In this document: positions 389 to 31,000 of the stretch, piece by piece
Layout: each line of letters begins with the position of its first letter
How positions within the stretch are numbered: the stretch's first letter is position 1
NCBI RefSeq assembly: GCF_902713615.1
Contig: NC_052158.1
Coordinates: 7,987,196-8,051,195, forward strand
Reading direction: 5' to 3'
Length of the DNA: 64,000 nucleotides
DNA from: Scyliorhinus canicula
Taxonomy: Eukaryota
Position numbers and translations under genes: made by a program
Notes under the pieces: generated by a model
Databases searched by the model: none
Seen by the model: only the letters and a program-made list of their open reading frames with translations
Told to the model about the DNA's origin: nothing

Positions 389-1203
389 GGGCGGAATTCT
401 CTGTTTCTGAGGATAAGTGCCGGCACCAACGGAGAATCCGTGGGTGATTCACAATGGGAAAATCGGCATGAACTCCTCACGAGGGCAGCACGGTGGCACA
501 GTGGTTAGCATTGCTGCCTACGGCGCTGAGGACCCGGGTTCGAATCCCGGCCCTGGGTCACTGTCCGTGTGGAGTTTGCACATTCTCCCCGTGTCTGCGT
601 GGGTTTCGCCCCCACAACCCAAAGATGTGCAGGTTAGGTGAATTGGCCATGCTAAATTGCCCCTTAATTGGAAAAAATAATTGGGTACTCTAAATTTAAA
701 AAAAAAAAAAATGAACTCCTCACGGATTCTGGTACTGGTGAGGGGCTAGTACCGGTGCCACGTGGAACACCCACGGACCGCGGGGAAAATGGCCGGAGAA
801 TCGCCGCGCATGTGCAGGGCTAATGAGCTGCACTGGTCGAGATGGAAAACATGGCGCCGGCCGTGCTGGCCACTGGCCGGCCACTCCCCCTCGCCCGAGC
901 AGAAGCCTCCCAGGCAGCGGCACAGATTCCTGATGAGTGTGGCGCTGATAGACACTGTCTCCCGTGGGCCACACGTGGCCTGCGCTATTGGGAACTCGAC
1001 CCATCGGGGCGGAGCTTAGTAGATGGGCCAGCTGAGGATGCGCCAACGGCCTTGTGACTGCGGCGGCGCACATCCTGATGACATTCATTTGGAGGGGGTG
1101 GAGCATCGTCAAACCGCCGCCTGCCCCGAATCCGGCATCAGAAGCCATTTTCCACCTGATTGCCGATCCCGATTTCGGTGTCGAGCTAGGGAGAATTCCG
1201 CCC
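389..1203. mobile_element. Harbinger-type non-autonomous DNA transposon (MITE)
   Basis: Perfect terminal inverted repeats GGGCGGAATTCTC...GAGAATTCCGCCC; no clean TSD visible. Confidence 0.7.
482..710 (+). mobile_element. tRNA-derived SINE, poly(A)-tailed subfamily
   Basis: A/B-box head (GGCACAGTGGTTAGC...GGTTCGAATCCC), poly(A) tail, 14-bp TSD ATGAACTCCTCACG at 468-481 and 711-724. Confidence 0.9.
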
Positions 1204-1269
1204 AGTGAGTGTGAACAGACAGTGAGTGTGAACATACAGTGAGCGTGAACAGACTGTCAACTCCCGCTC

Positions 1270-1530
1270 CGAGCTGTACCCATGGAGAGTGTGATATACC
1301 ACACAGGTTCCCGCTCATGCCCTGGAGTAACCCAGTGACATAGAAGTTGAAGACTGCAATGACCTTCATGGCCATTGGAAGTGGGTGTCCTCCTCCTTCA
1401 CGGGATGCCATGCCTATCAGGGCACGGCACAGGTGCTGTACTATCGCTCTGTTGAATCGGAGTCTTTGGTGAATACATGCTCTTGTCAGCTCATCAAAGG
1501 ACCAATGATGCCTGTACATATTGGACAGTC
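1270..1530 (-). pseudogene. Harbinger/HARBI1-like transposase N-terminal fragment
   Basis: MYRHHWSFDELTRACIHQRLRFNRAIVQHLC...GGHPLPMAMKVIAVFNFYVTGLLQGMSGNLCGISHS matches the HARBI1-type HTH region. Confidence 0.75.
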
Positions 1531-1979
1531 GCTGGCCTCCCCTTCTGGCCTCCTCCTCAGCCTGATGGGATGTCGAGTCTTCAGGGTGCATAGCGGCATC
1601 CTGCACATGTGGTTTTGCCTCCTGCCTGCGTTGGCATTGCTGCCTACTCCGACATCTGCCTGCCTCGGCAGCCACAAGCAGAGCGACAGAAGCCTCCGCA
1701 GGATCCACACCAGCAAACATTTTTTGATCCAACAGGAATTGGGGAATTGACGTACAATCAGTTAGATCTTTCATCCCGGGACCCTCGTATCTTCCAAGCC
1801 TCCCCCACCCTGCACATCACTGTCCCGCGGTTCTCTCAGAGCCACCTACAGAGTTAGTTGTGCTGGCAATCCTCACCCTGCACATTCACTCTCTGCCAGA
1901 TCTGGCGGCTCTAGATCCCAAACTCCCAGCAACATGAGGGAGGTTCAGCTCAGCCACACTCTTCTCACCCAGACACTTA

Positions 1980-3150: not shown

Positions 3151-3439
3151 GGACTCCTCCTTCAATGGGAGAAGCAGCAACAGTGCTCTGTCCTGGATGT
3201 GTTTGGTAGAACAGGCTGCAGCTGTGGTTGCCCCTGTTATGGGTCTCCAGAGTTTGTGAAGATAGCTCCAAGGCCTCACAGACGCAAAGCCCCTCACCCC
3301 ACCCTACCCCTCTGCACAGGAGTAAAATAATCAACGTGCAATAAAGAAACAATACATCAATAGGGCATATATAAAACAAAGCAATAAACAGTATAAATTG
3401 ACAAGTGACTGTGCATATTGCAATATAGATGGGAGACTA

Positions 3440-4665
3440 TCAAGGTTCTTGATTGTAGAGCCTTTCCCGATGTCGGATGGCCCTTGCCGAGTCCAGGTGT
3501 TGTTCCTTCTTCCATTGGGTAAATTTAAATGTGAGGATGGTTAGGTACACTGCCATAAGTAGGATTCCTATGGATGGAATTTGGACATTTGAACCCCAGT
3601 CCCAGAGGGCCTCCCATCATGTAGTGACTCTAATTTCACTAATGTTCTTTTTTATTTCCCCTGTTTGACAAAAGTCTTGTGTGCTGTGATCAATTGTGTC
3701 CAAATTTGTTGAGGTTTCTCGGGTAGAAGTGTTATCCCGGTATCAAATTTTTCAAAATAGTCCCCCAAGCTTTGTCTTAATTCCTCGCTAGCATTTATTA
3801 GTGTTTCCTCTCTTCTGTTTATGTCTACCGTCTCAATCACTCCTATCCTAGAGAGAATGTGTGGTTTATTGCAAAAATGTAGTGTTGTGGATGTTACATA
3901 TGCCTGCCCATACTGGTAATTTTCTAGCAAGATTGCAATACAGTATTATCCCTCCCCCTGTAACCTACCCGGGTGACAGCCCTTTCCAAATTTCGAATTT
4001 CCAGTGTACAACGTAGGTCAGTGGTTGTTCTGAATCCACACAGGGCATGTTAATTTTCGTACACCGGATATGGGCACATGACTGTTTTGTCTATGCGTTC
4101 ACATTTCTCCAGACTGGTGCCTATGAGCTTCCCTCCTTTCTCAACCACATACGGTAGAGTCCCCTGGTATCCCATCCACATCCGTCCTTTAATGATCCCT
4201 TTATTTTTGGCTTCAAAAAGTTTCAACCAGACTTTATCTTTTAATACTACTGGTATCCCCAAACCATTCCTAATGCAGTCCCCGGGGTTCCTCTACAACT
4301 ATCGTTCGACCAGACCTTGGTCAGCTGCCATAATTGGCAGTTAGTGACATTGGGTGTAATTTTTCCGGGTAGAGCTGATAAATCTGTTCAGCACTGATCC
4401 AGGACGGAACTTTACCCCTGTTAACCTTGTCAAGGTTCTCTCGTAGTTCCTCAACCATCCATTGCCCATAAATGCTCCACAGGGGTTGGTTCTGTTGCCT
4501 GGCATTATCTTCAACCCTCCCTCAGGAAATCTGATTAATAGTTTGGACATGTTCTTCTGGCACTGTAACCATAAGGCTACTGGCTCTGTTCTCAGCCAAA
4601 TCTCCCTCGGCATCTTGCCGAGCATTTTCATTTAAACTGTCCAAGGTTTGTTTAACTTATCGGGT
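3440..4665 (-). pseudogene. Degraded envelope/fusion-glycoprotein-like ORF of an endogenous retro-element
   Basis: Stitching frames across several stops and frameshifts gives a heptad-rich segment, a Cys-rich region, a second helix (EELRQSLGDYFEKF...EIKKNISEI), Trp-rich *WEALWDWGS, a hydrophobic stretch IPSIGILLMAVYLTILTF and a short basic tail ending at TGA 3440-3442. Confidence 0.55.
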
Positions 4666-5152
4666 TTTGATAGAATGCTTCATCAAGATGGAGAGTGATA
4701 TAGTTGATACTGAGACTAGGGTCCTGAATCTTCATCAAGGAAACAATAATGATATGAGTCTCAAGTTGGCTATGAAAGATTGGGAAATGTTCCAAAAAAG
4801 GGATGACAGTGGATAGGCAATGGCAAACATTCAAAGAACACATGGCTGAACTGCAACAACTGTTTATTCCTGCCTGGCCCAAACGAAAAATGGGAGAGGT
4901 GGCCAAACCATGGCTTACAAGGGAAACTTGAGATAATACTAGATCCAAGGAAGAGCATACAAATTAGCCAAGAAAAACAACAGATCTGAGGATTGGGAGC
5001 AATTTAGAATTCACCAAAGGAGGACCAAGGAATTGATTAAGAAGGGGAAACGAGAGTACAAGAGTAAGCTTGTGGGAAACATAAAAACTGACTGTAAAGG
5101 TTTCTATAGGTACATGAAGAGAAAAAGATTGGTGAAGGCAAATGTAGGTTCC

Positions 5153-6555
5153 TGATAGAAATTGACTTTCTAGTTAGCTATAGATGATAAAATGTTCAAT
5201 TGAGCTCATTAAGAGTAATTAACTAAATTGTATTATCCATGGGAGTGAGAATAGCTAGGAACATTTTGCAAACTGCACATAGCTAAAAGACCCCATTGCG
5301 TTGGAAAGAACTGAGCTGTTGTCCCAGTTCCATTTATATGGTAACAACCAGTCTGGGGTGATAAGTCTAGCGAATATTTTTTTTTTCTCAAGCGATGGTA
5401 TGGGAAAGTTTGTACAAATATATTTAAATACATTTTCTCTTAAATTGACGGACAGTTTGGCTGAATTGAGTGAATTATAAATTATTTAAAGCCAATCAAA
5501 GCTGTACAGAAGGCAAAACCTTAAGATAATATCTTCTTAAGAATCACTTGTCGGGATGGAAAAACCCATTCCTGAATCACGCGCTCTCTCTATTTTTCTG
5601 AAACCCATGGGCGGAATTCTCCGCAAGACCCGACGCCGTCGTGAAACCCGGAGTGTTTCACAACGGCGTCGGAGGCCGCTCCTTGCCCCCGATTCTCCCC
5701 TCCCCCAGGGGTTAGGAGCGGCGTGCCGTAAATCTCGGCTGCCGGGCCTTGACGCTGGCGTCAACCCGCGCATGCGCTGTTGCCGTCTTCCCCTCCGCTG
5801 CCCCACAAGACATGGCAGCTTGATCTTGCGGGGCGGCGGAGGGGAAAGAGTGCATCCCTTTGAGACGCCGGCCCGATGATCGGTGGGCACCGATCGCGGG
5901 CCAGTCCCCTCCCGAGCACGGTCGTGGTGCTCACTCCCCTCTCCACCCCCCACAAGCCACAAACCAGCTTCTGGCGCCATGTTGACGCCGGCAGCGATCA
6001 GGTGTGGTTGCCGCCTGCGTGTACCGGTCGGGAACGGCAGGCCGCTCGGCCCATCCTGGTCGGAGAATCGCGGGTCGCCATGAAAAACGGCGGCACGCGA
6101 TTCTCCGAGCGGCGTGTCGCAAAACGCGACACGCCATTGGGGGGGGGGGTGGGAGAATCGCGGGGGGTGCCAGAGTGGCCCTCCCGCAATTCTCCCACCC
6201 GGCCTGGGCAGTGGAGAATCGCGCCCCATGTCTTTGCTGCTTGACTTTGCTAATCGCCATCTTTCTTTTGTTTAAGTCACCTCGTTATGTTATTCTGTGT
6301 ATTATGATTTGAAGAATTACCACAATCTGTATTTTTAAACTTAACCACTGTATTCGCTAATCTGACTAGCTTGCTAAAGGGCCAGTTTGAATTCTCTTCA
6401 TGTTGTACTGAACATAAAGTTACCAGTGGGCACTACAGCTGACTAATAAAGTTCCAGTGGACTTTGCCAAAAAGCACAGACTTGACCTCTTTTATTTGGG
6501 AACTGAGAAGGGATGACGGATATCCAGGGTTCCGAATAGACACAGAGATCCATCA
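5153..6555 (+). mobile_element. Solo LTR (about 780 bp plus an inserted MITE)
   Basis: TGAT...ATCA termini, 5-bp TSD GTTCC (5148-5152, 6556-6560), AATAAA near 6446; splits a CR1 cleanly. Confidence 0.75.
5609..6226. mobile_element. Harbinger-type MITE
   Basis: TIRs GGGCGGAATTCTCC / GGAGAATCGCGCCC with 3-bp TSD CAT; same family as 59297-60018. Confidence 0.85.
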
Positions 6556-8019
6556 GTTCCCTTATAGTCAGAAATAGGAATTTATAATGGGGAACAAAGA
6601 AATGGCTGACCAACTGAATACATAGTTTGGTTATGTCTTCACAAGGAGGACACAAATAAGATAACAGATATGTTGGGGAACACACGGTTTAGTGAGAGGG
6701 AAGAACTGAAGAAATCAGTTTTAGAAGAGAAATGGTATTGGGAAAATTGATGGGATTGAAGGCCTATAAATCCCCAGAGCCAAATAATCTGCATCCTAGA
6801 GTACTTAAGGAAGTGGCCTGATAGATAGTGGATGCATTAGTGGCCATCTTCCAAGGTTTCATAGACTCTGGAACAGTTCTTCAGTTCTTACAGATTGGAG
6901 GGTTGCTAATGTAATCCCACAATTTAAAAAGGGAGGTAAAGAGAAAACAGAGAATTATTGACCAGTAAACCTGACGTCAGTCATGGGGAAAATTCTAGAA
7001 TCCATTATCAAAGATTCGATAGCAGAACACTTGGAAAACAGTGGCAGGATCGGACAGAATCAGCATGGATTTATAAAGGAGAAATCATACTTGACAAATC
7101 TACTGGAATTCTTTAAGGATGTAACCAATAGAGTTGATGAAAGGGAGCCTGTGGATGAGGTATATTTGGACTTTGAGAAGGCTTTTGACAAAGTCCCACA
7201 TAAAAGATTAGGGAGGAAAATTAAAGGCCATGGGATTAGGGGAATGTATTGAGATGGATAAGAAAATGGTTGGCAGATAGGAAACAAAATATAGGAATAA
7301 ATGGGTATTTTTCCAAGTGGCAGCAAATGACCAGTGGGGTGCTGCAGGGATCGGTGTTGGGTCACCAGCTAGTCACTATATATATATATTAATGACTTAG
7401 CTAATGGAACAAAATATAGTATCTCCAAATTTGCAGATGACACAAAGCTGGGTGGGAGGGTGAGCTGTGAAGAGGATGCAGAGATCCTTCAGTGTGATTT
7501 GGACAAGTTGAGTGAGTGGGCAAATGAATGGCAGATGCAAGATAATTTGGATAAGTGTAAGGTCATCCGTTTTGGTAGCAAAAACAGGAGTGCAGACGAT
7601 TAACTGAATGCCCATAAATTAGGAGAGAGAAATGTACAACAAGACCTCGGTGTCCTCATACATCAGTCACTGAATATAAGCAAGCAGGTGCGGCAGGCAG
7701 AAAAGAAGGCAAATGGTATGTTGGCCTTCATAGCTAGAGGATTTGAGTACAGGAGCAGGGATGTCTTGCTGTAATTATACAGGGCCTTGGTGAAGCCACA
7801 CCTGGAATATTGTGTGCCGTTCTGGTCTCCTTATCTGAGGAATGATGTTCCTGCTCTCGAGGGAATGCTGAGAAGTTTTACCAGACTGATTCCTGGGGTA
7901 GCATGACTGACATATGAGGATAGATTGAGTCAAGTAGGCTTGTATTTGCTGGAGTTCAGGAGAATGGTGGGGGGGGGGGGGATTTTAGAAACCTATACAA
8001 TTCTAACAGGACTGTAGAG

Positions 8020-8330
8020 TGTGGTGATATGGCTGCTGGTGTGACCTCTAACCAGCAGGCGGTAGGACAGACACACCATGCGGTCACAAGAAAGTGGTCA
8101 TGTGACAAAGCACTCCAATATAAATGGGGACACATCCGGTCATCGGCAGATGTTTATAAGACATACAAGTGGTAGGGTAGTTCCAGAGGAGTACAAAGAA
8201 ACTCCATGATAACGTGCTCTGTAACAGATCGCTATCTGACCTCGTGTGATTCAATAATAGAAGATCCTGGTTTGGACAACTCAAGTCGTTTGATATATTC
8301 CTTGCTAGTTATCAAACACCAAACACAACA
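8020..8330 (+). mobile_element. Possible solo LTR inside CR1
   Basis: TGTGG...CAACA ends, TATA-like ATATAAA, interrupts the CR1 3' region; no TSD found. Confidence 0.4.
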
Positions 8331-8506
8331 TACAGGGTAGATGTAAGGAAGATGTTCTCGATGGTGGGGGTGTCCAGAACCAGGGGTCACAGTCTGAGGA
8401 TATAGGATAGTCCGTTTAAGACAGAGGTGAGGAGAACTTTCTTCACCCAGAGAGTGGTCAACCTGTGGAATTCGCTACCACAGAAAATAGTTGAGGCCAA
8501 AATACT

Positions 8507-13265: not shown

Positions 13266-14096
13266 GGAGCTCGGATCTTGAACAGAGCTTTATATCTGGA
13301 TTTGGGGACCCTTTATGCACTGGCATAGTGCACAAACAGGCCCCACATGACCAGGGTTTTGTGAAGAAGAAGGGATCTGGAAATGTGTCGACTGTGAAAA
13401 TTATATTTGTGGAAATTGGGTGAAGTAATGCCGGTGTTTGATGAGACTTGGTGGTAAAGCTTTAGAGAAATGAAGATGGAATTTGATTTGAAGAAGTTCA
13501 ACGTTTTGAAGGATATTGTGGCTGAAATGAATGCGATACGTGCTGAATGGGCTGACTGAGAAATGTGTGAGATATGTCTTTGTATCTGCTATGTGTAATT
13601 TATCGGTCATATTATTGCAATTTTCCTGTTAATTCATGTTTAATTTACGTTGATTTTGGTGTGATTGCTAATATAAAAGTTAAGTCTTGTATATTGGTCT
13701 TAGTTGGGTTGTTTGTAGTTTGTTTCCACAAGGGTCATAACAGTATTTCCATGACGTTGCTGCTCTTATCCTTCTCCATGGGGGTTGCAGAGGAGGGAGG
13801 CACAACTTTCGAGACATAACATCTCACCCATTGCTGCAAAGCAAAATGACTGAAGAAGAGAACAATATCCCTAGAATCCCAGCGCTAAGGGGAAATTGAC
13901 TAAATCTTACAGTGCAATTTAACCTCAGGCAGCCATCCTATACCTTAGAGATGACCTAGAGGCAGCTTGGGACCTGTCGTGAAGGTGAGTGAGTGCCTTT
14001 AAATTTGCTTACCTTTCACTGGGAGCAGGGTTTGAGGGAATATCAGGTAAGCTCTTCGTTTCTTTTTCTTCTTCTTGTTTTTTTTAAAACCTAGAG

Positions 14097-15005
14097 GTGA
14101 TGTCAGGGAAGGCAGTACAATGCTCCTCCTGCAGAATGTTTGAGGTGAGGGACGCCGTCAGTGTCCCTGCTGATTTCATCTGTGGGAAGTGCACCCAACT
14201 CCAGCTCCTCAAAAACCGTGTTAGGGACCTGGAGCTTGGGCTGGATGAACTTCGGATCATTCGGCAGGCAGAGGGGGTCATAGATAGGAGCTTCAGGGAA
14301 GTAGTTACACCAAAGACTGGAGATAGATGGGTAACTGTAAGAGGGACTGGGAAGAAGCAGTCAGTGCAGGAACCCCCTGCGGTCGTTCCCCTGAGTAACA
14401 AGTATACCGTTTTGGATACTTGTGGGGGGGACGACTTACCAGGGGTAAGCCATGGGGTACGGGCCTCTGGCACGGGGTCTGTCCCTGTTGCTCAGAAGGG
14501 AAGGGGGGAAAGGAGTAGAACATTAGTAATTGGGGACTCAATAGTCAGGGGCACAGATAGGAGATTTTGTGGGAGCGAGAGAGACTCATGTTTAGTATGT
14601 TGCCTCCCAGGTGCAAGGGTACGTGATGTCTCGGATCGTGTTTACCGGGTCCTTAAGGGGGAGGGGGAGCAGCCCCAAGTCGTAGTCCACATTGGCACTA
14701 ACGACATAGGTAGGAAAGGGGACAAGGATGTCAGGCAGGCCTTTAGGGAGCTAGGATGGAAGCTCAGAGCGAGAACAAACAGAGTTGTTATCTCTGGGTT
14801 GTTGCCCGTGCCACGTGATAGTGAGATGAGGAATAGGGAGAGAGAGCAATTAAACACGTGGCTACAGGGATGGTGCAGGTGGGAGGGATTCAGATTTCTG
14901 GATAACTGGGGCTCTTTCTGGGGAAGGTGGGACCTCTATAGACAGGATGGTCTACATCTGAACCTGAGGGGCACCAATATCCTGGGGGGGGGGGAGATTT
15001 GTTAG
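14097..15005 (+). CDS. CR1 ORF1p (zinc finger, coiled coil, SGNH esterase)
   Basis: CSSC...CGKC, leucine heptads, LVIGDSIVR, VVHIGTND, DGLHLN; the end is frameshifted by an expanded G run near 14985. Confidence 0.88.
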   Translation: MMSGKAVQCSSCRMFEVRDAVSVPADFICGKCTQLQLLKNRVRDLELGLDELRIIRQAEGVIDRSFREVVTPKTGDRWVTVRGTGKKQSVQEPPAVVPLSNKYTVLDTCGGDDLPGVSHGVRASGTGSVPVAQKGRGERSRTLVIGDSIVRGTDRRFCGSERDSCLVCCLPGARVRDVSDRVYRVLKGEGEQPQVVVHIGTNDIGRKGDKDVRQAFRELGWKLRARTNRVVISGLLPVPRDSEMRNREREQLNTWLQGWCRWEGFRFLDNWGSFWGRWDLYRQDGLHLNLRGTNILGGGEIC

Positions 15006-15011
15006 TGCTCT

Positions 15012-17312
15012 TTGGGGGGGTTTAAACTAATTCAGCAGGGGCATGGGAACCTGGATTGTAGTTTTGGGGTACGGGAGATTGAGAGTATAGAGGTCAGGAG
15101 CACAGATTTGACTTCGCAGGAGGGTGCCAGTGTTCAGGTAGGTGGTTTGAAGTGTGTCTACTTCAATGCCAGGAGTATACGAAATAATGTAGGGGAACTG
15201 GCAGCATGGGTTGGTACCTGGGACTTCGATGTTGTGGCCATTTCAGAGATATGGATAGAGCAGGGACAGGAATGGTTGTTGCAGGTTCCGGGGTTTAGGT
15301 GTTTTAGTAAGGTCAGAGAAGGGGGCAAAAGAGGGGGAGGTGTGGCGCTGCATGTCAAGGACAGTATTACGGTGGCGGAAAGGATACTAGATGGGGACTC
15401 TTCTTCCGAGGTAATATGGGCTGAGGTTAGGAACAGGAAAGGAGAGCTCACCCTGTTGGGAGTTTTCTATAGGCCACCTAATAGTTCTAGGGATGTAGAG
15501 GAAAGGATGGCGAAGATGATTCTGGAAAAGAGCGAAAGTAACAGGGTAGTTGTTATGGGAGACTTTAACTTTCCAAATATTGACTGGAAAAGATATAGTT
15601 CGAGTACATTAGATGGGTCGTTCTTTGTACAATGTGTGCAGGAGGGTTTCCTGACACAATATGTTGACAGGCCAACAAGAGGCGAGGCCACATTGGATTT
15701 GGTTTTGGGTAATGAACCAGGCCAGGTGTTAGATCTGGAGGTAGGTGAGCACTTTGGAAACAGTGACCACAATTCGGTGACCTTTACGTTAGTGATGGAA
15801 AGGGATAAGTATACCCCGCAGGGCAAGAGTTATAGCTGGGGGAAGGGCAATTATGATGCCATTAGACATGACTTAGGATGTGTAGGTTGGAGAACAAGGC
15901 TGCAAGTGTTGGGCACACTGGATATGTGGAGCTTGTTCAAGGAACAGCTATTGCATGTTCTTGATAAGTACGTACCAGTCAGGCAGGGAGGAAGGGGTCG
16001 AGCGAGGGAACCGTGGTTTACCAAAGAAGTGGAATCTCTTGTTAAGAGGAAGAAGGAGGCCTATGTGAAGATGAGGCGTGAAGTTTCAGTTGGGGCGCTT
16101 GATAGTTACAAGGAAGCGAGGAAGGATCTAAAGAGAGAGCTAAGACGAGCAAGGAGGGGACATGAGAAGTCTTTGGCAGGTAGGATCAAGGAAAACCCAA
16201 AAGCTTTCTATAGGTATGTCAGGAATAAAAGAATGACTAGGGTAAGAGTAGGGCCAGTCAAGGACAGTGGTGGGAAGTTGTGTGTGGAGGCTGAGGAGAT
16301 AAGCGAGATACTAAATGAATACTTTTCGTCAGTATTCACTCAGGAAAAAGATAATATTGTGGAGGAGAATGCTGAGACCCAGGCTATTAGAATAGATGGC
16401 ATTGAGGTGCGTTGGGAAGAAGTGTTGGCAATTCTGGACAAGGTGAAAATAGATAAGTCCCCGGGGCCTGATGGGATTTATCCTAGGATTCTCTGGGAAG
16501 CCAGGGAAGAGATTGCTGAGCCTTTGGCTTTGATTTTTAGGTCATCATTGGCTACAGGAATAGTGCCAGAGGACTGGAGGATAGCAAATGTGGTCCCTTT
16601 GTTCAAGAAGGGGAGTAGAGATAACCCCGGTAACTATAGGCCGGTGAGCCTAACGTCTGTGGTGGGTAAAGTCTTGGAGAGGATTATAAAAGATATAATT
16701 TATAATCATCTGGATAGGAATAATATGTTTAGGGATAGTCAGCATGGTTTTGTGAAGGGTAGGTCATGCCTCACAAAACTTATCGAGTTCTTTGAGAAGG
16801 TGACTGAACAGGTAGACGAGGGTAGAGCAGTTGATGTGGTGTATATGGATTTCAGTAAAGCGTTTGATAAGGTTCCCTACGGTCGGCTATTGCAGAAAAT
16901 ACGGAGGCTGGGGATTGAGGGTGATTTAGAGATGTGGATCAGAAATTGGCTAGTTGAAAGAAGACAGAGAGTGGTAGTTGATGGGAAATGTTCAGAATTG
17001 AGTTCAGTTACGAGTGGCGGACCACAAGGATCTGTTCTGGGGCCGTTGCTGTTTGTCATTTTTATAAATGACCTAGAGGAGGGCGCAGAAGGATGGGTGA
17101 GTAAATTTGCAGACAACACTAAAGTCGGTGGAGTTGTAGACAGTGCGGAAGGATGTTGCAGGTTACAGAGGGACATAGATAAGCTGCAGAGCTGGGCTGA
17201 GAGGTGGCAAATGGAGTTTAATGTGGAGAAGTGTGAGGTGATTCACTTTGGAAAGAATAACAGGAATGCGGAATATTTGGCTAATGGTAAAATTCTTGGT
17301 AGTTGTGGGTGA
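15012..17312 (+). CDS. CR1 ORF2p (AP endonuclease + RT), interrupted near 17312, remainder in other frames to about 17800
   Basis: YFNARSI, GDFNFP, SDHN, QHGF..SC, DFSKAFDKV, QGSVLGPLLF; the catalytic motif reads FADN instead of FADD. Confidence 0.9.
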   Translation: MGGFKLIQQGHGNLDCSFGVREIESIEVRSTDLTSQEGASVQVGGLKCVYFNARSIRNNVGELAAWVGTWDFDVVAISEIWIEQGQEWLLQVPGFRCFSKVREGGKRGGGVALHVKDSITVAERILDGDSSSEVIWAEVRNRKGELTLLGVFYRPPNSSRDVEERMAKMILEKSESNRVVVMGDFNFPNIDWKRYSSSTLDGSFFVQCVQEGFLTQYVDRPTRGEATLDLVLGNEPGQVLDLEVGEHFGNSDHNSVTFTLVMERDKYTPQGKSYSWGKGNYDAIRHDLGCVGWRTRLQVLGTLDMWSLFKEQLLHVLDKYVPVRQGGRGRAREPWFTKEVESLVKRKKEAYVKMRREVSVGALDSYKEARKDLKRELRRARRGHEKSLAGRIKENPKAFYRYVRNKRMTRVRVGPVKDSGGKLCVEAEEISEILNEYFSSVFTQEKDNIVEENAETQAIRIDGIEVRWEEVLAILDKVKIDKSPGPDGIYPRILWEAREEIAEPLALIFRSSLATGIVPEDWRIANVVPLFKKGSRDNPGNYRPVSLTSVVGKVLERIIKDIIYNHLDRNNMFRDSQHGFVKGRSCLTKLIEFFEKVTEQVDEGRAVDVVYMDFSKAFDKVPYGRLLQKIRRLGIEGDLEMWIRNWLVERRQRVVVDGKCSELSSVTSGGPQGSVLGPLLFVIFINDLEEGAEGWVSKFADNTKVGGVVDSAEGCCRLQRDIDKLQSWAERWQMEFNVEKCEVIHFGKNNRNAEYLANGKILGSCG

Positions 17313-26580: not shown

Positions 26581-28035
26581 CTCTCTCTCACCTTCCCCCA
26601 AACCTCTCGCCCCGAACCTCTGCCTCTCCCCCCCGAACCTCTCCCTCACCTCCCCCCGAACCTCTCCCCCGTACCTCTCCCTCAACCCCCCCGAACCTCT
26701 CCCTCAACCCCCCCCCGAACCTCTCCCTCACCCGCCCCAAACCTCTCCCCTGAACCTCTCTTCCACCCCCTTGAACCTCTCCCACCCCACCGAACCTCCC
26801 CCCCGAACCTCTCTTGCCTGCCCCCGAACCTCTATTGCCCCCCGAACCTCTCTCGGTCCCCCAACCTTTCTCTCACCTCCCCCGAACCTCTACCCCCTGA
26901 ACCTCTCCCCCCTGAACCTCTCTCCCTCAACCCCCCCCCGAACCTCTCCCTCAACCGCCCCGGACCTCTCCCCTGAACCTCTCTTCCACTCCCCTGAACC
27001 TCTCCCACCCCCACCGAACCTCCCCCCCCCAAACCTCTCTTGCCTGCCCCCGAACCTCTCTTGCCCCCCGAACCTCTCTCGCTCCCCCAACCTTTCTCTC
27101 ACCCCCCCCCGAACCTCTACCTCCTGAACCTCTCCCCCCCGAACCTCTCTTGCCTGCCCCCGAACCTCTCTTGCCCCCCGAACCTCTCTCGCTCCCCCAA
27201 CGTTTCTCTCACCTCCCCCGAACCTCTCCCCCCCGAACCTCTCCCCCCTGAACCTCTCTCCCCTCAACCCCCCCAAACCTCTCCCTCACCCGCCCCGGAC
27301 CTCTCCCCTGAACCTCTCTTCCACTCCCCTGAACCTCTCTTCCACCCCCCTGAACCTCTCCCACCCCCACCGAACCTCCCCCCCCGAACCTCTCTTGCCT
27401 GCCCCCGAACCTCTCTTGCCCCCCGAACCTCTCTCGCTCCCCCAACCTTTCTCTCACCTCCCCCGAACCTCTACCCCCCTGAACCTCTCCCCCTGAACCT
27501 CTCTCCCCTCCCCTGAACCTCTCCATCCTCCCCCGAACCTCTCTCCCCTCCCCCGAACCTCTCCCCCCCCCGAACCTCTCTCCCCCTGAACCTCCCGCTC
27601 CCCTCCCTCCTCTCCCCGAACCTCTCTCCCCCTGGCCCCTCCTTGAACCTCTGTCCCCCCCCTCCCGAACCTCTGTCCCCCCTCCCCCCGAACCTCTCTC
27701 CCCCCCCGAACCTCTCTCCCCCCCGACCCTCTCTCGCCTCCTGAACCTGTCTCCTCCTCCCGAACCTCTCTCCCTCCCCCCCCGAACCTCTCTAACCCCC
27801 CCCCCGAACCTCTCTCCACCCCGAACCTCTCCATTCCCCCCGAATCTCTCTCCCCCTCCACCCAAACCTCTCTCCCTCCTGAACCTCTCCACTCCCCCTC
27901 CTGAATCTCTCCATTCCACCCCGCGAACCTCTCCACTCTCCCCTGAACCTCTCCACTCTCCCCTGAACGTCTCCACTCTCCCCTGAACCTCTCCACTCCC
28001 CCCCCGAACCTCTCCACTCCTCCCCCCCCTTCCCC
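26580..28035. repeat. C-rich minisatellite (CCCCGAACCTCTC / CCCCGAACCTCTCCACT units)
   Basis: Tandem units. Confidence 0.9.
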
Positions 28036-31000
28036 GAGGCGTTCAAAGGGGCGGCAGGCCTTCACCAGGTGCACACGGTCCGGCCGGTAGAAATGCGGCT
28101 TGCACTCCGCACAGACCTGGCAGTCTCTGGTGACTGTCTGTACTTCCTCGGCAGAGTAGGGCAGATTGCGGGCCTTGACAAGATGGTACAACCATGTGAC
28201 CCCGGGTGAGAAAGGATGTCATGTATGGCCTGGAGTCGGTCTACTTGTGCGCTGGCACATGTACCTCTGGATAGGGCGTCTGGGGGCTCATTGAGTTTGC
28301 CGGGGCGATACAGAATCTCATAATTATAGGTGGAGAGCTCGATTCTCCACCGCAAGATTTTATCATTTTTGATCTTGCCCCGCTGCGTGTTATTGAACAT
28401 GAAGGCTACCGACCGTTGGTCAGTGATTAGAGTGAATCTCCTGCCGGCCAGGTAATGCCTCCAATGCTGCACAGTTTCAACGATAGCCTGGGCCTCCTTT
28501 TCGACGGACGAGTGCTGAATTTCTGAGGCATGAAGGGTGCGGGAAAAGAATGCCACGGGTCTGCCTGTCTGATTGAGGGTGACGGCAAGGGTTACGTCTG
28601 ACGTGTCGCTTTCTACTTGGAAGGGCAGTGTCTTGTCTGCTGCGTGCATCCCGGCCTTAGCTGTGTCTGCTCTGATACGGGCGAAGGCCTGTTGTGCCTC
28701 GGCCTTAAGGGGAAAATGGATGGACTGAATGAGTGGACGGGCCTTGTCCGCGTATTGTGGGACCCACTGAGCGAGTATGAAAAGAACCCCAGGCAGCGTT
28801 TGAGGGCCTTGGGGCAGTGGGGGAGGGGAAGCTCCATGAGATGGCACATGCGGTCGGGATTGGGTCCCAGAACTCCGTTCTGGACCACATAGCCGAGGAT
28901 GGCTAAGCGGGTCGTGCTGAACACACACTTCTCCTTATTGTAGGTGAGGTTGAGGAGAGTGACGGTGCGGAGGAATTTAGCAAGGTTGGCATCGTGGTCC
29001 TGCTGATCATGGCCGCAGATGGTGACGTTGTCTAGTTACGGAAAAGTGGCCCGCGAACCGTACTGGTCGACCATTCGGTCCATCTCCCTTTGGAAGACTG
29101 AGACCAATAGTGACGCCGAAGGGAACCCTGAGGAAGTGATAGAAACGACCGTCCGCCTCAAAGGCAGTGTATGGACGGTCCGATTTTATGAATGGGGAGC
29201 TGGGGGTAGGCGGATTTTAGGTCAATCGTTGAGAAGACCCGATATTGCACATCTGATTGACTATATTAGATATGCGTGGGAGGGGGTACGCGTCGAGCTG
29301 CGTGTACCGATTGATGGTCTGGCTGTAGTCCACGACCATTCTATGCTTCTCCTCAGTTTTAATGACTACCACTTGAGCTCTCCAGGGGCTGTTGCTGGCC
29401 TCGATGATACCCTCCCGAAGCAGCCGCCGGACCTCGGACCTGATGAAGGTCTTGTCCTGGGTGCTGTACCGTCTGCTCCTGGTGGCAAAGGGTTTGCAAT
29501 CCGAAGTTAGATTGGCAAAGAGGGAGGGGGGGGGTCAACCTTTAGGGTCGCGAGGCCGCATACAGTGAGGGGTGGTAGGGGCCCGCCGAATTTGAGGACG
29601 AGGCTCTGGAGGTTGCACTGGAAGTCCAGGCCTAGTATTAGTGCAGCGCAGAGATTAGGAAGGACATAGAGGTGGAAGCCGCTGAATTCTAAGCCCTGGA
29701 CCGTGAGAGTGACTGTGCAGAACCCCCGGATTGGGACGGAATGGGATCCGGAGGCCAGTGAGATTATTTGGTTGGCGGGGTGAACCGCGAGGGAGCAGCG
29801 CCTTACTGTATCCGGGTGGATGAAGCTTTCGGTGCTCCCGGAGTCCAGCAGGCAAGAGGTCACGTGACCATTGATTTTCACCGTCGTCGAAGCGGTGGCC
29901 AGGTTGTGTGGACCAGACTGGTCGAGTGTCATCGAGGCGAGCTGCGGTTGATCATCACTGGTGTCGGAAGACGAAGAGCGTGGGGGCCGCCAGTCATGGA
30001 ATGTCGTCAGCGTCCATGCCCCGTGGGGAAGACAAGATGACGGTGAATAAAGATCCTGCGGGGGACAAAATGACGGCGCCCATGGGCCGCATGTTGCTGG
30101 AGCTGAACAAGATGGCGGCGCCCATGGGCCGCTCGTGGACTGAGGGGGGAAGATGGCGGCGCCCACTGGCTGGTCGCTGCCCCGGGAGGTGAAAATGGCG
30201 GCGCCCACTGGCCGCACGTGGCCCCGGGGGATGAAGATGGCAGTACCCACTGGCTGCGCGTGGTCCGGGGGTGAAGATGGCAGCGCCCACTGGCCGCGCG
30301 TGGTCCCGGGGGATGAAGATGGCAGTACCCACTGGCCGCACGTGGCCCCGGGGGATGAAGATGGCAGTACCCACTGGCTGCGCGTGGTCCGGGGGTGAAG
30401 ATGGCGGCGCCCACTGTGCGTGTGTCAGGGGTAAGGGGGCGATAGCGGCGACTGCGAGGGCCTGGCACACTGCGGCGAATTGGCCCTTTTTGCTGCAAGC
30501 CTTGCAAATGGCAGTGCGGGCCAGGCAGCGATGGCGGGTGTGCTTCTGCTGGCAGCAGAAGTAACATCGGGGACCCCTGGGATTGGCGTGTGGTGCAGGC
30601 GTATTGGCTGGGTAAGGCCCTGGCTGGGGCGGCCGTTTGCGGGGTCCACAAGAGATAGGAGGAGTGGGCCGCGCGGCCGGAGGGGTAGGCCTGCGAGTTA
30701 CGTGAGGCGACCGTCATGGAGAGCGCCAGCATTTTAGTCTCCACTAGGTCGAGCGTGGCCCCCTCAAGTAGTCTTTGGCTGATGAGGTCCGACCCAATCC
30801 CCGTTACAAAAGCATAGTGCATGAGGAGATTAGAATATTCGGTGGCCGTGACGGCCTGACAGTCACAGTCCCGGATGAGTGGGATTAGGGCCTGCCAGAC
30901 GTCTTCAATGGACTCACCAGGGAGTTGGAGCAAGTGGCGAGTACGTGTCTGGCAAAGAGTGTGTTCGCTTTCTGCGCGTAGTTCTCTTTGAGGAACGCCA

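Follow-up and report, generated by a model that had tools for sequence, protein, structure and literature searches.

SnRV-like and class III endogenous retroviruses (ERVs) are already known from cartilaginous fish, including the CmiERV lineage I of the elephant shark (PMC4422223, PMC6001957 and PMC4977317, in part; these and the other publications marked "in part" are cited for the portions accessible to us). Likewise known is the F-type fold of the foamy Env (PMC11468914, in part), and lokiretroviruses carry an F-type Env with a basic cleavage site, a fusion peptide, a coiled coil and a TM segment, together with a dual RNase H (PMC7947760, in part). Other marks of lokiretroviruses are an RT that is sister to those of all other retroviruses, an IN nearest to CGIN1 and, optionally, an smc gene. 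A shark and frog clade of elements, CmiFLERV/XtrFLERV, is known from pol only (PMC5512871, in part). The 2026 screen for fish env required CKS17 and CX5-7C gamma-type motifs (PMC12813294, in part), and an anamniote env survey, in its accessible portion, was likewise keyed on gamma-type motifs by design. The literature that we covered yielded no description of an F-type Env in SnRV-like shark ERVs, nor of a captured shark env of the kind presented below.

The window, i.e. the whole 64-kb stretch of Scyliorhinus canicula DNA under study, very probably holds a dead, doubly truncated env fragment of an old multi-copy shark ERV, likely deep-branching and class III/SnRV-related rather than a lokiretrovirus, the Env of which has a predicted paramyxovirus-F/foamy fold. 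The fragment and its surroundings comprise the following features:

4345..4666, minus strand: TM subunit of env, from the region of the first heptad helix as far as the VPSWIS motif; truncated 5', with a stop in frame at 4522-4524 and a shift of frame close to the 3' end
3933..4344, minus strand: Cys-rich beta region of env, with a stop in frame at 4050-4052 and a frame change at either end
3658..3945, minus strand: last part of the env beta region, then the second heptad helix; the frame shifts close to the 3' end
3440..3670, minus strand: env membrane-proximal Trp-rich motif, single TM and short tail; in-frame stop at 3617-3619, terminal stop at 3440-3442
3321..3439, minus strand: ERV sequence 3' of env, non-coding; homology breaks off short of the PPT and LTR of the family, both absent here
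3165..3310, minus strand: short, unrelated high-copy repeat, which holds the purine run 3289-3311
4668..8500, plus strand: 5'-truncated, interrupted LINE with ORF2 remnants (RVT_1 at 6962-7249), adjoining the cut env end; 3' boundary approximate

A sequence-only reading of the window had proposed minus-strand env remnants of about 400 aa with a defined motif order, and this part of it was borne out. Six-frame translation placed the quoted motifs between 4666 and 3440 of the minus strand, distributed over several frames; taken together, the broken pieces encode most of the fusion (TM) subunit. The window covers positions 233-639 (about 400 columns) of an env profile built from 41 unmended pieces, namely sister copies plus the window, in the order helix, Cys-rich block, second helix, Trp-rich motif, TM and tail; since the window pieces are part of this profile, the domain E-values of 1e-56 to 4e-15 are not independent. 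Independent support is provided by 55 other DNA matches in the same genome with 69-89% identity, the search with the window env having returned 56 matches from 40 scored candidates. A hydropathy peak locates the TM segment at about 3530-3586, where it is shorter than that of the sister copies. Also in agreement with the proposal, no CX6CC or ISD-like motif of the gamma type occurred in any row of the two env alignments (0/41 and 0/60).

The env belongs to an old repeat family, because the closest other copy is 82-85% identical to the window and most copies 69-81% at the DNA level, and because searching at the protein level with an open stretch of 256 residues from another copy gave at least 150 matches, all of them short or interrupted by stops. 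No intact copy of this env family was found among those examined in the genome, and a word-indexed search with a 256-aa env-family piece returned 0 of 1,180 candidates. The suggested search for intact env copies linked to RT and LTRs thus succeeded for the linkage, with pol and PPT/LTR starts recovered (see below), and failed for the intact copy. Considering its stops, its frame changes and the loss of start, cleavage site and fusion peptide, the window fragment would have no function now.

Both ends of the fragment are set by other repeats. On the 5' side, ERV homology stops at 4666 and a high-copy LINE, which we take to belong to the CR1 clade, begins at 4668 (6,775 candidates, best matches 83-85%, with relatives that match LINE ORF2), as expected from the earlier proposal that a LINE had cut the env there. 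Sister copies extend about 800 bases further 5', where a surface part of small size, the basic site for cleavage (seen in 11 of 41 rows) and the stretch after this site are encoded; the position 4666 was therefore rejected as the element's own 5' end, and the window copy has lost the surface subunit together with the cleavage site and the fusion peptide. The remainder of the provirus does not lie beyond the LINE either, as no gag, pol, 5' env or LTR was present in the whole 64 kb. On the 3' side, the purine run at 3289-3311 had been put forward as a possible PPT, a suggestion that has to be abandoned because the run sits in a different repeat: ERV homology ends at about 3321, and this repeat yielded 2,541 candidates and at least 39 other matches (80-86% identity among the matches listed). 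The longest pure purine stretch in the run is 7, and the window contains 349 equally purine-rich 23-mers. The real PPT of the family, together with the TGTGGTAAT LTR start, was found in 5 of 30 loci, some 130-145 bases past the point at which the window copy ends.

The structure of the parent element was approached through the 10 kb surrounding 60 env loci of the same genome. Of the 60 loci, 31 had pol homology upstream in the orientation of env and none had it on the opposite strand; in at least two of the 31 (L035 and L066), the pol is that of an adjacent element from another subfamily. For this search we used the open Pol of a young, related family, to which an env-linked integrase piece had led. 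Env-linked copies encode a tether and RNase H, and LTR-like segments lie 3' of env in 13 of 60 loci and 5' in 4 of 60. For the window's own subfamily (env DNA identity 70-77%), the linked sequences comprise tether, RNase H and IN, plus one short RT piece. The ancestral virus would thus have had the order LTR-gag-pro-RT-tether-RNase H-IN-env-PPT-LTR. After entry into the germ line its copies would have decayed, a LINE and a later deletion taking away everything 5' of 4666 in the window copy, and another repeat replacing its 3' end.

The young family (L051-L056 and L062, e.g. L051:1-9724) is a high-copy relative in which many copies have kept Pol open over about 1,400 residues. Its LTR pairs are 97-100% identical in those checked, its Gag has a coiled coil and CCHC, and its Pol is composed of PR, RT, tether, RNase H and IN. 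It was rejected as the carrier of the window-type env, having a short TM-bearing ORF at the env place.

Searches with sequences and profiles were of little help in recognising the Env. Pfam and PDB sequence searches with window pieces and family profiles gave no F or foamy Env match and nothing meaningful, PF00523 was matched by 0 of 60 env rows at E<=0.05 and by 0 of 20 homologues at E<=0.1, and 1 of the 20 homologues had a single weak Baculo_F match (E 0.0011). The profile of 41 unmended pieces retrieved 54 proteins among 1.84 billion, and the named homologues among the 29 looked up were from sharks, a skate, frogs and the coelacanth; in the ESM Atlas, one chordate cluster at 0.82 provides a lead. 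A 376-aa family fragment folded directly reached a pLDDT of 48 and had no match at E<=0.001.

The fold became apparent with P0136, an intact bamboo-shark homologue that matches across profile positions 110-635 (E 7.9e-29). This protein, 11-28% identical to the family rows, was folded with the 60-row alignment, and the model has a pLDDT mostly of 70-95 over residues 180-600. When compared with the PDB by Foldseek, its top matches were all paramyxo/pneumovirus F proteins (E 1.5e-11), with 260 matches at E<=0.001. Superposition on paramyxo/pneumovirus F gave a VIA Z of 11.1 (rmsd 5.3, 286 aligned) and on the foamy Env 8rm1 a Z of 8.4 (rmsd 12.3, 268 aligned), and F proteins ranked above foamy Env in all three fold searches. 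TM-scores were low (about 0.3) because the long helices differ between states. Baculovirus F was matched as well, and together with paramyxo/pneumovirus F and the F-type errantivirus Env (bioRxiv 10.1101/2023.10.26.564294, in part) forms the set of best structural matches, which span residues 189-661 of the model. Identity to these F proteins is 8-13%, and in P0136 about 180 additional N-terminal residues form a domain ahead of the F core. Transfer of this fold to the window is based on the P0136 orthologue, which aligns with the family profile over 504 columns at 99.9% probability, and on the Cys-rich piece of the window, which has a direct pairwise match at E 4e-5. The Env of the window family is thus predicted to have a paramyxovirus-F/foamy fold, as seen in the model of homologue P0136 only, and the Cys-rich beta region at 3933..4344 would, judging from this model, be the equivalent of F domains I/II. 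The class I fusion-protein (F) layout proposed from the sequence therefore stands by way of the homologue. The profile and Foldseek comparison recommended at that time had a mixed outcome, as the P0136 model matched F proteins while the family fragment and the sequence profiles remained without a match.

Two walleye epsilonretrovirus envelopes, of WEHV-1 (E 1.1e-8) and WDSV (E 3e-7), were found at ranks 24 and 31 in the comparison with the P0136 model, which suggests that the epsilon Env may also have the F fold.

By analogy with the established mechanism of class I F proteins, the ancestral Env would have been cut at the basic site into a small surface subunit, the last strands of which belong to the F core, and a TM subunit. 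The fusion peptide and the first heptad helix would then have sprung into the target membrane, and the second helix zipped back to form a six-helix bundle. The sister copies have the basic cleavage site and the fusion peptide as well as the coiled coil and TM; of these, the window keeps only the helices and the TM.

The affiliation of the family was examined by using the RT of the young family to collect 120 database relatives, among which the "NYNRIN-like" names are automatic. The best RT relatives were frog and coelacanth elements with 51-58% identity. One relative row is identical to the SnRV row in the supplement of PMC7947760 (in part), and Loki-like fish rows were labelled by the signature given in that supplement. 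SnRV, with a YVDD RT, is the closest named RT to the shark family: the RT core of the young family is 48.6% identical to SnRV over 246 aa and 37-39% identical to Loki-like rows. Trees were built from 68 rows (quick), 49 rows (careful, 19 rows dropped) and 33 rows; none contains a foamy RT row, there being no foamy RT among the 120 relatives. In all three, the shark rows, including env-linked copies, form one clade within the non-Loki retroviruses. The env-linked rows in these trees represent a sister subfamily with 59-63% env DNA identity to the window, L077 of the closer subfamily having been dropped because its RT covers 96 of 246 columns. Support in the 49-row tree was 100/100 for the shark clade and 98/95 for its position inside the non-Loki retroviruses, with the Loki-like rows apart (100/99). 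Class I-like rows form a separate clade (100/96) with the shark rows outside, so that the RT phylogeny called for by the sequence-only reading found the linked copies not to be of the gamma/epsilon (class I) type. SnRV is not a supported sister of the shark clade, and RT trees and AU comparisons gave no supported order at the base of the retrovirus clade. A class III/SnRV-related position would nevertheless be the best home for the family, which has in common with SnRV, clade Huo and class III ERVs a YVDD RT, a tether plus RNase H, a deep non-Loki position and occurrence in cartilaginous fish. The SnRV Env was not recognised among the family's matches, and its cytoplasmic tail of 136 residues (PMC12193657, in part) differs from the short tail of the shark family.

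An unlikely alternative, though the one that survives best, is a fish foamy-like ERV (FLERV/clade Tu) related to the CmiFLERV/XtrFLERV group. Foamy RT was the top PDB match by a narrow margin (209 vs 206 bits for MLV, phmmer), and the foamy Env, whose TM subunit has its fold in common with paramyxo/pneumovirus F, matches that of P0136. The closest Pol relatives include Xenopus tropicalis, in line with the shark and frog clade of PMC5512871 (in part), and one catshark ERV was called spuma-like in PMC10699275 (in part). However, the RT core is far nearer to SnRV and to the frog and coelacanth elements, and the fold searches place F proteins ahead of foamy Env. The surface subunit of foamy viruses is much longer, the intact shark-family homologues measuring 723-754 aa in all vs 981 for the feline foamy Env. 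The Gag of the related young family also has a CCHC knuckle (zf-CCHC, E 1.1e-7), a comparison that depends on the young family since the Gag of the old one is too decayed. To our knowledge, true foamy Gag has no such knuckle.

Still less probable is the identity favoured by the sequence-only reading, i.e. a lokiretrovirus env, which would add cartilaginous fish to the hosts of these viruses, or else an env that another retrovirus took over from a lokiretrovirus. The F-type layout is the same, and the Cys spacing appears, by eye, similar to that of the Loki Env in the supplement of PMC7947760 (in part). Yet the F fold is no marker of lokiretroviruses, because foamy Env has it and walleye epsilonretrovirus Env was matched. 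Tether and RNase H are also present, but a tether plus second RNase H is common to all retroviruses and thus not diagnostic. Over RT plus tether, a Loki-like Pol reaches the same score as SnRV, 287 bits. Against this, a constraint joining shark and Loki rows was rejected in the 33-row tree (AU p 0.0014), the shark RT lies outside the Loki clade and lacks the PFGY.NSP-type Loki signature, and PF00523 was not matched by the Env. Among the 29 homologues whose names were looked up, there was no protein of a ray-finned fish or lamprey, and Wang and Han, in the accessible portion of PMC7947760, recorded no lokiretrovirus in 6 chondrichthyan genomes. The lokiretrovirus identity was therefore not upheld, and for pol it is refuted.

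As for a cellular pseudogene or a chance ORF mosaic, the window pieces have no Pfam match and the genome contains an intact host-like homologue, but this gene is only about 14-30% identical to the env family, and this exceedingly improbable reading is refuted by the linkage of dispersed copies to pol upstream and PPT/LTR downstream.

Returning to the shark env family, that intact homologue is a single-copy, 754-codon F-type env-like gene on C14 (G000:C14:36601689-36603950, minus strand; locus L111:1498-3759), a distant relative of the window's family and not its descendant. Its product is 98% identical to a cloudy-catshark protein and 86-88% identical to bamboo- and horn-shark proteins, so that the gene is kept across three shark orders. 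P0136 and the cloudy-catshark protein are 86% identical over 734 residues with 19/19 cysteines kept, and the 90% cluster of the latter includes a horn-shark protein of 754 residues. The next-best match in the genome, in a stricter first look from which weak copies may be missing, was broken and 46% identical. Within 60 kb around the gene, nine probes detected no gag or pol, and there was no LTR pair, the sole direct repeat across it being 250 bases at 66%.

A pyrimidine tract and CAG stand just ahead of the ATG, forming an acceptor-like site 2 bases before it, and a contig of 4,782 bases, taken from what is presumed to be an RNA run, departs from the genome at this site with 50 unmatched letters; the upstream exon was not located. 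Three raw RNA runs contained 0, 4 and 2 reads of the gene, these runs being nearly blank and of no bearing either way, and its listed holders include none on record as RNA. Like syncytins, percomORF and Seb-env (PMC12813294, in part), the gene has an open frame, is single-copy, is conserved across host lineages and stands without a provirus, the features that characterise captured env genes. We regard it as a candidate for a captured env of the F type that the host has likely domesticated.

We consider it probable that a widespread, undescribed F-fold env family exists in shark, frog and coelacanth retroviruses, and that one member was captured before the galeomorph split, to be kept in catsharks, bamboo shark and horn shark as an intact, spliced, single-copy gene of 754 codons that retains all 19 cysteines, the cleavage site and the TM. 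Such a gene would serve its host in the manner of a syncytin or against viruses, with the paramyxovirus F fold as its scaffold. The galeomorph split dates to about 200 million years ago and, given this age and that of mammalian syncytins, the C14 gene would be a candidate captured env older than the latter.

While the window locus itself is inert, its family combines an Env of the F fold with a retroviral pol that is deep-branching but ordinary. Together with the Env of foamy viruses, lokiretroviruses and, by fold match, epsilonretroviruses, this supports the F-type Env as an old state of retroviruses, its ancestral status being one open scenario of Wang and Han (PMC7947760, in part). The family has none of the motifs required by the fish screen of PMC12813294 (in part), and screens of this gamma-motif type miss a whole class of fish env.

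Several minor observations were made in relatives of the env family. P0137, P0178 and P0161 are intact or long frog env relatives (Pelodytes and Xenopus; 53% identical to each other), which could be young ERVs or a second capture, and P0161 has a weak Ig V-set match in its surface part. In the horn-shark and sawshark gene models P0139, P0158 and P0173, env-family pieces are joined to the host genes fbxo15, Niban 1-like and cadherin-related 5-like, through either mis-annotation or exonisation.

Elsewhere in the window, a 235-codon open frame at 1112-1816 (minus strand) had no Pfam match; its middle resembles a Harbinger transposase remnant. Positions 14088-17309 (plus strand) are occupied by a young LINE in which long stretches of ORF1 and ORF2 are still open, its ORF2 being 96% identical to the L044 copy, and decayed fragments labelled by eye as Gypsy-like gag/pol lie amid low-complexity repeats at 27457-30713 (minus strand).
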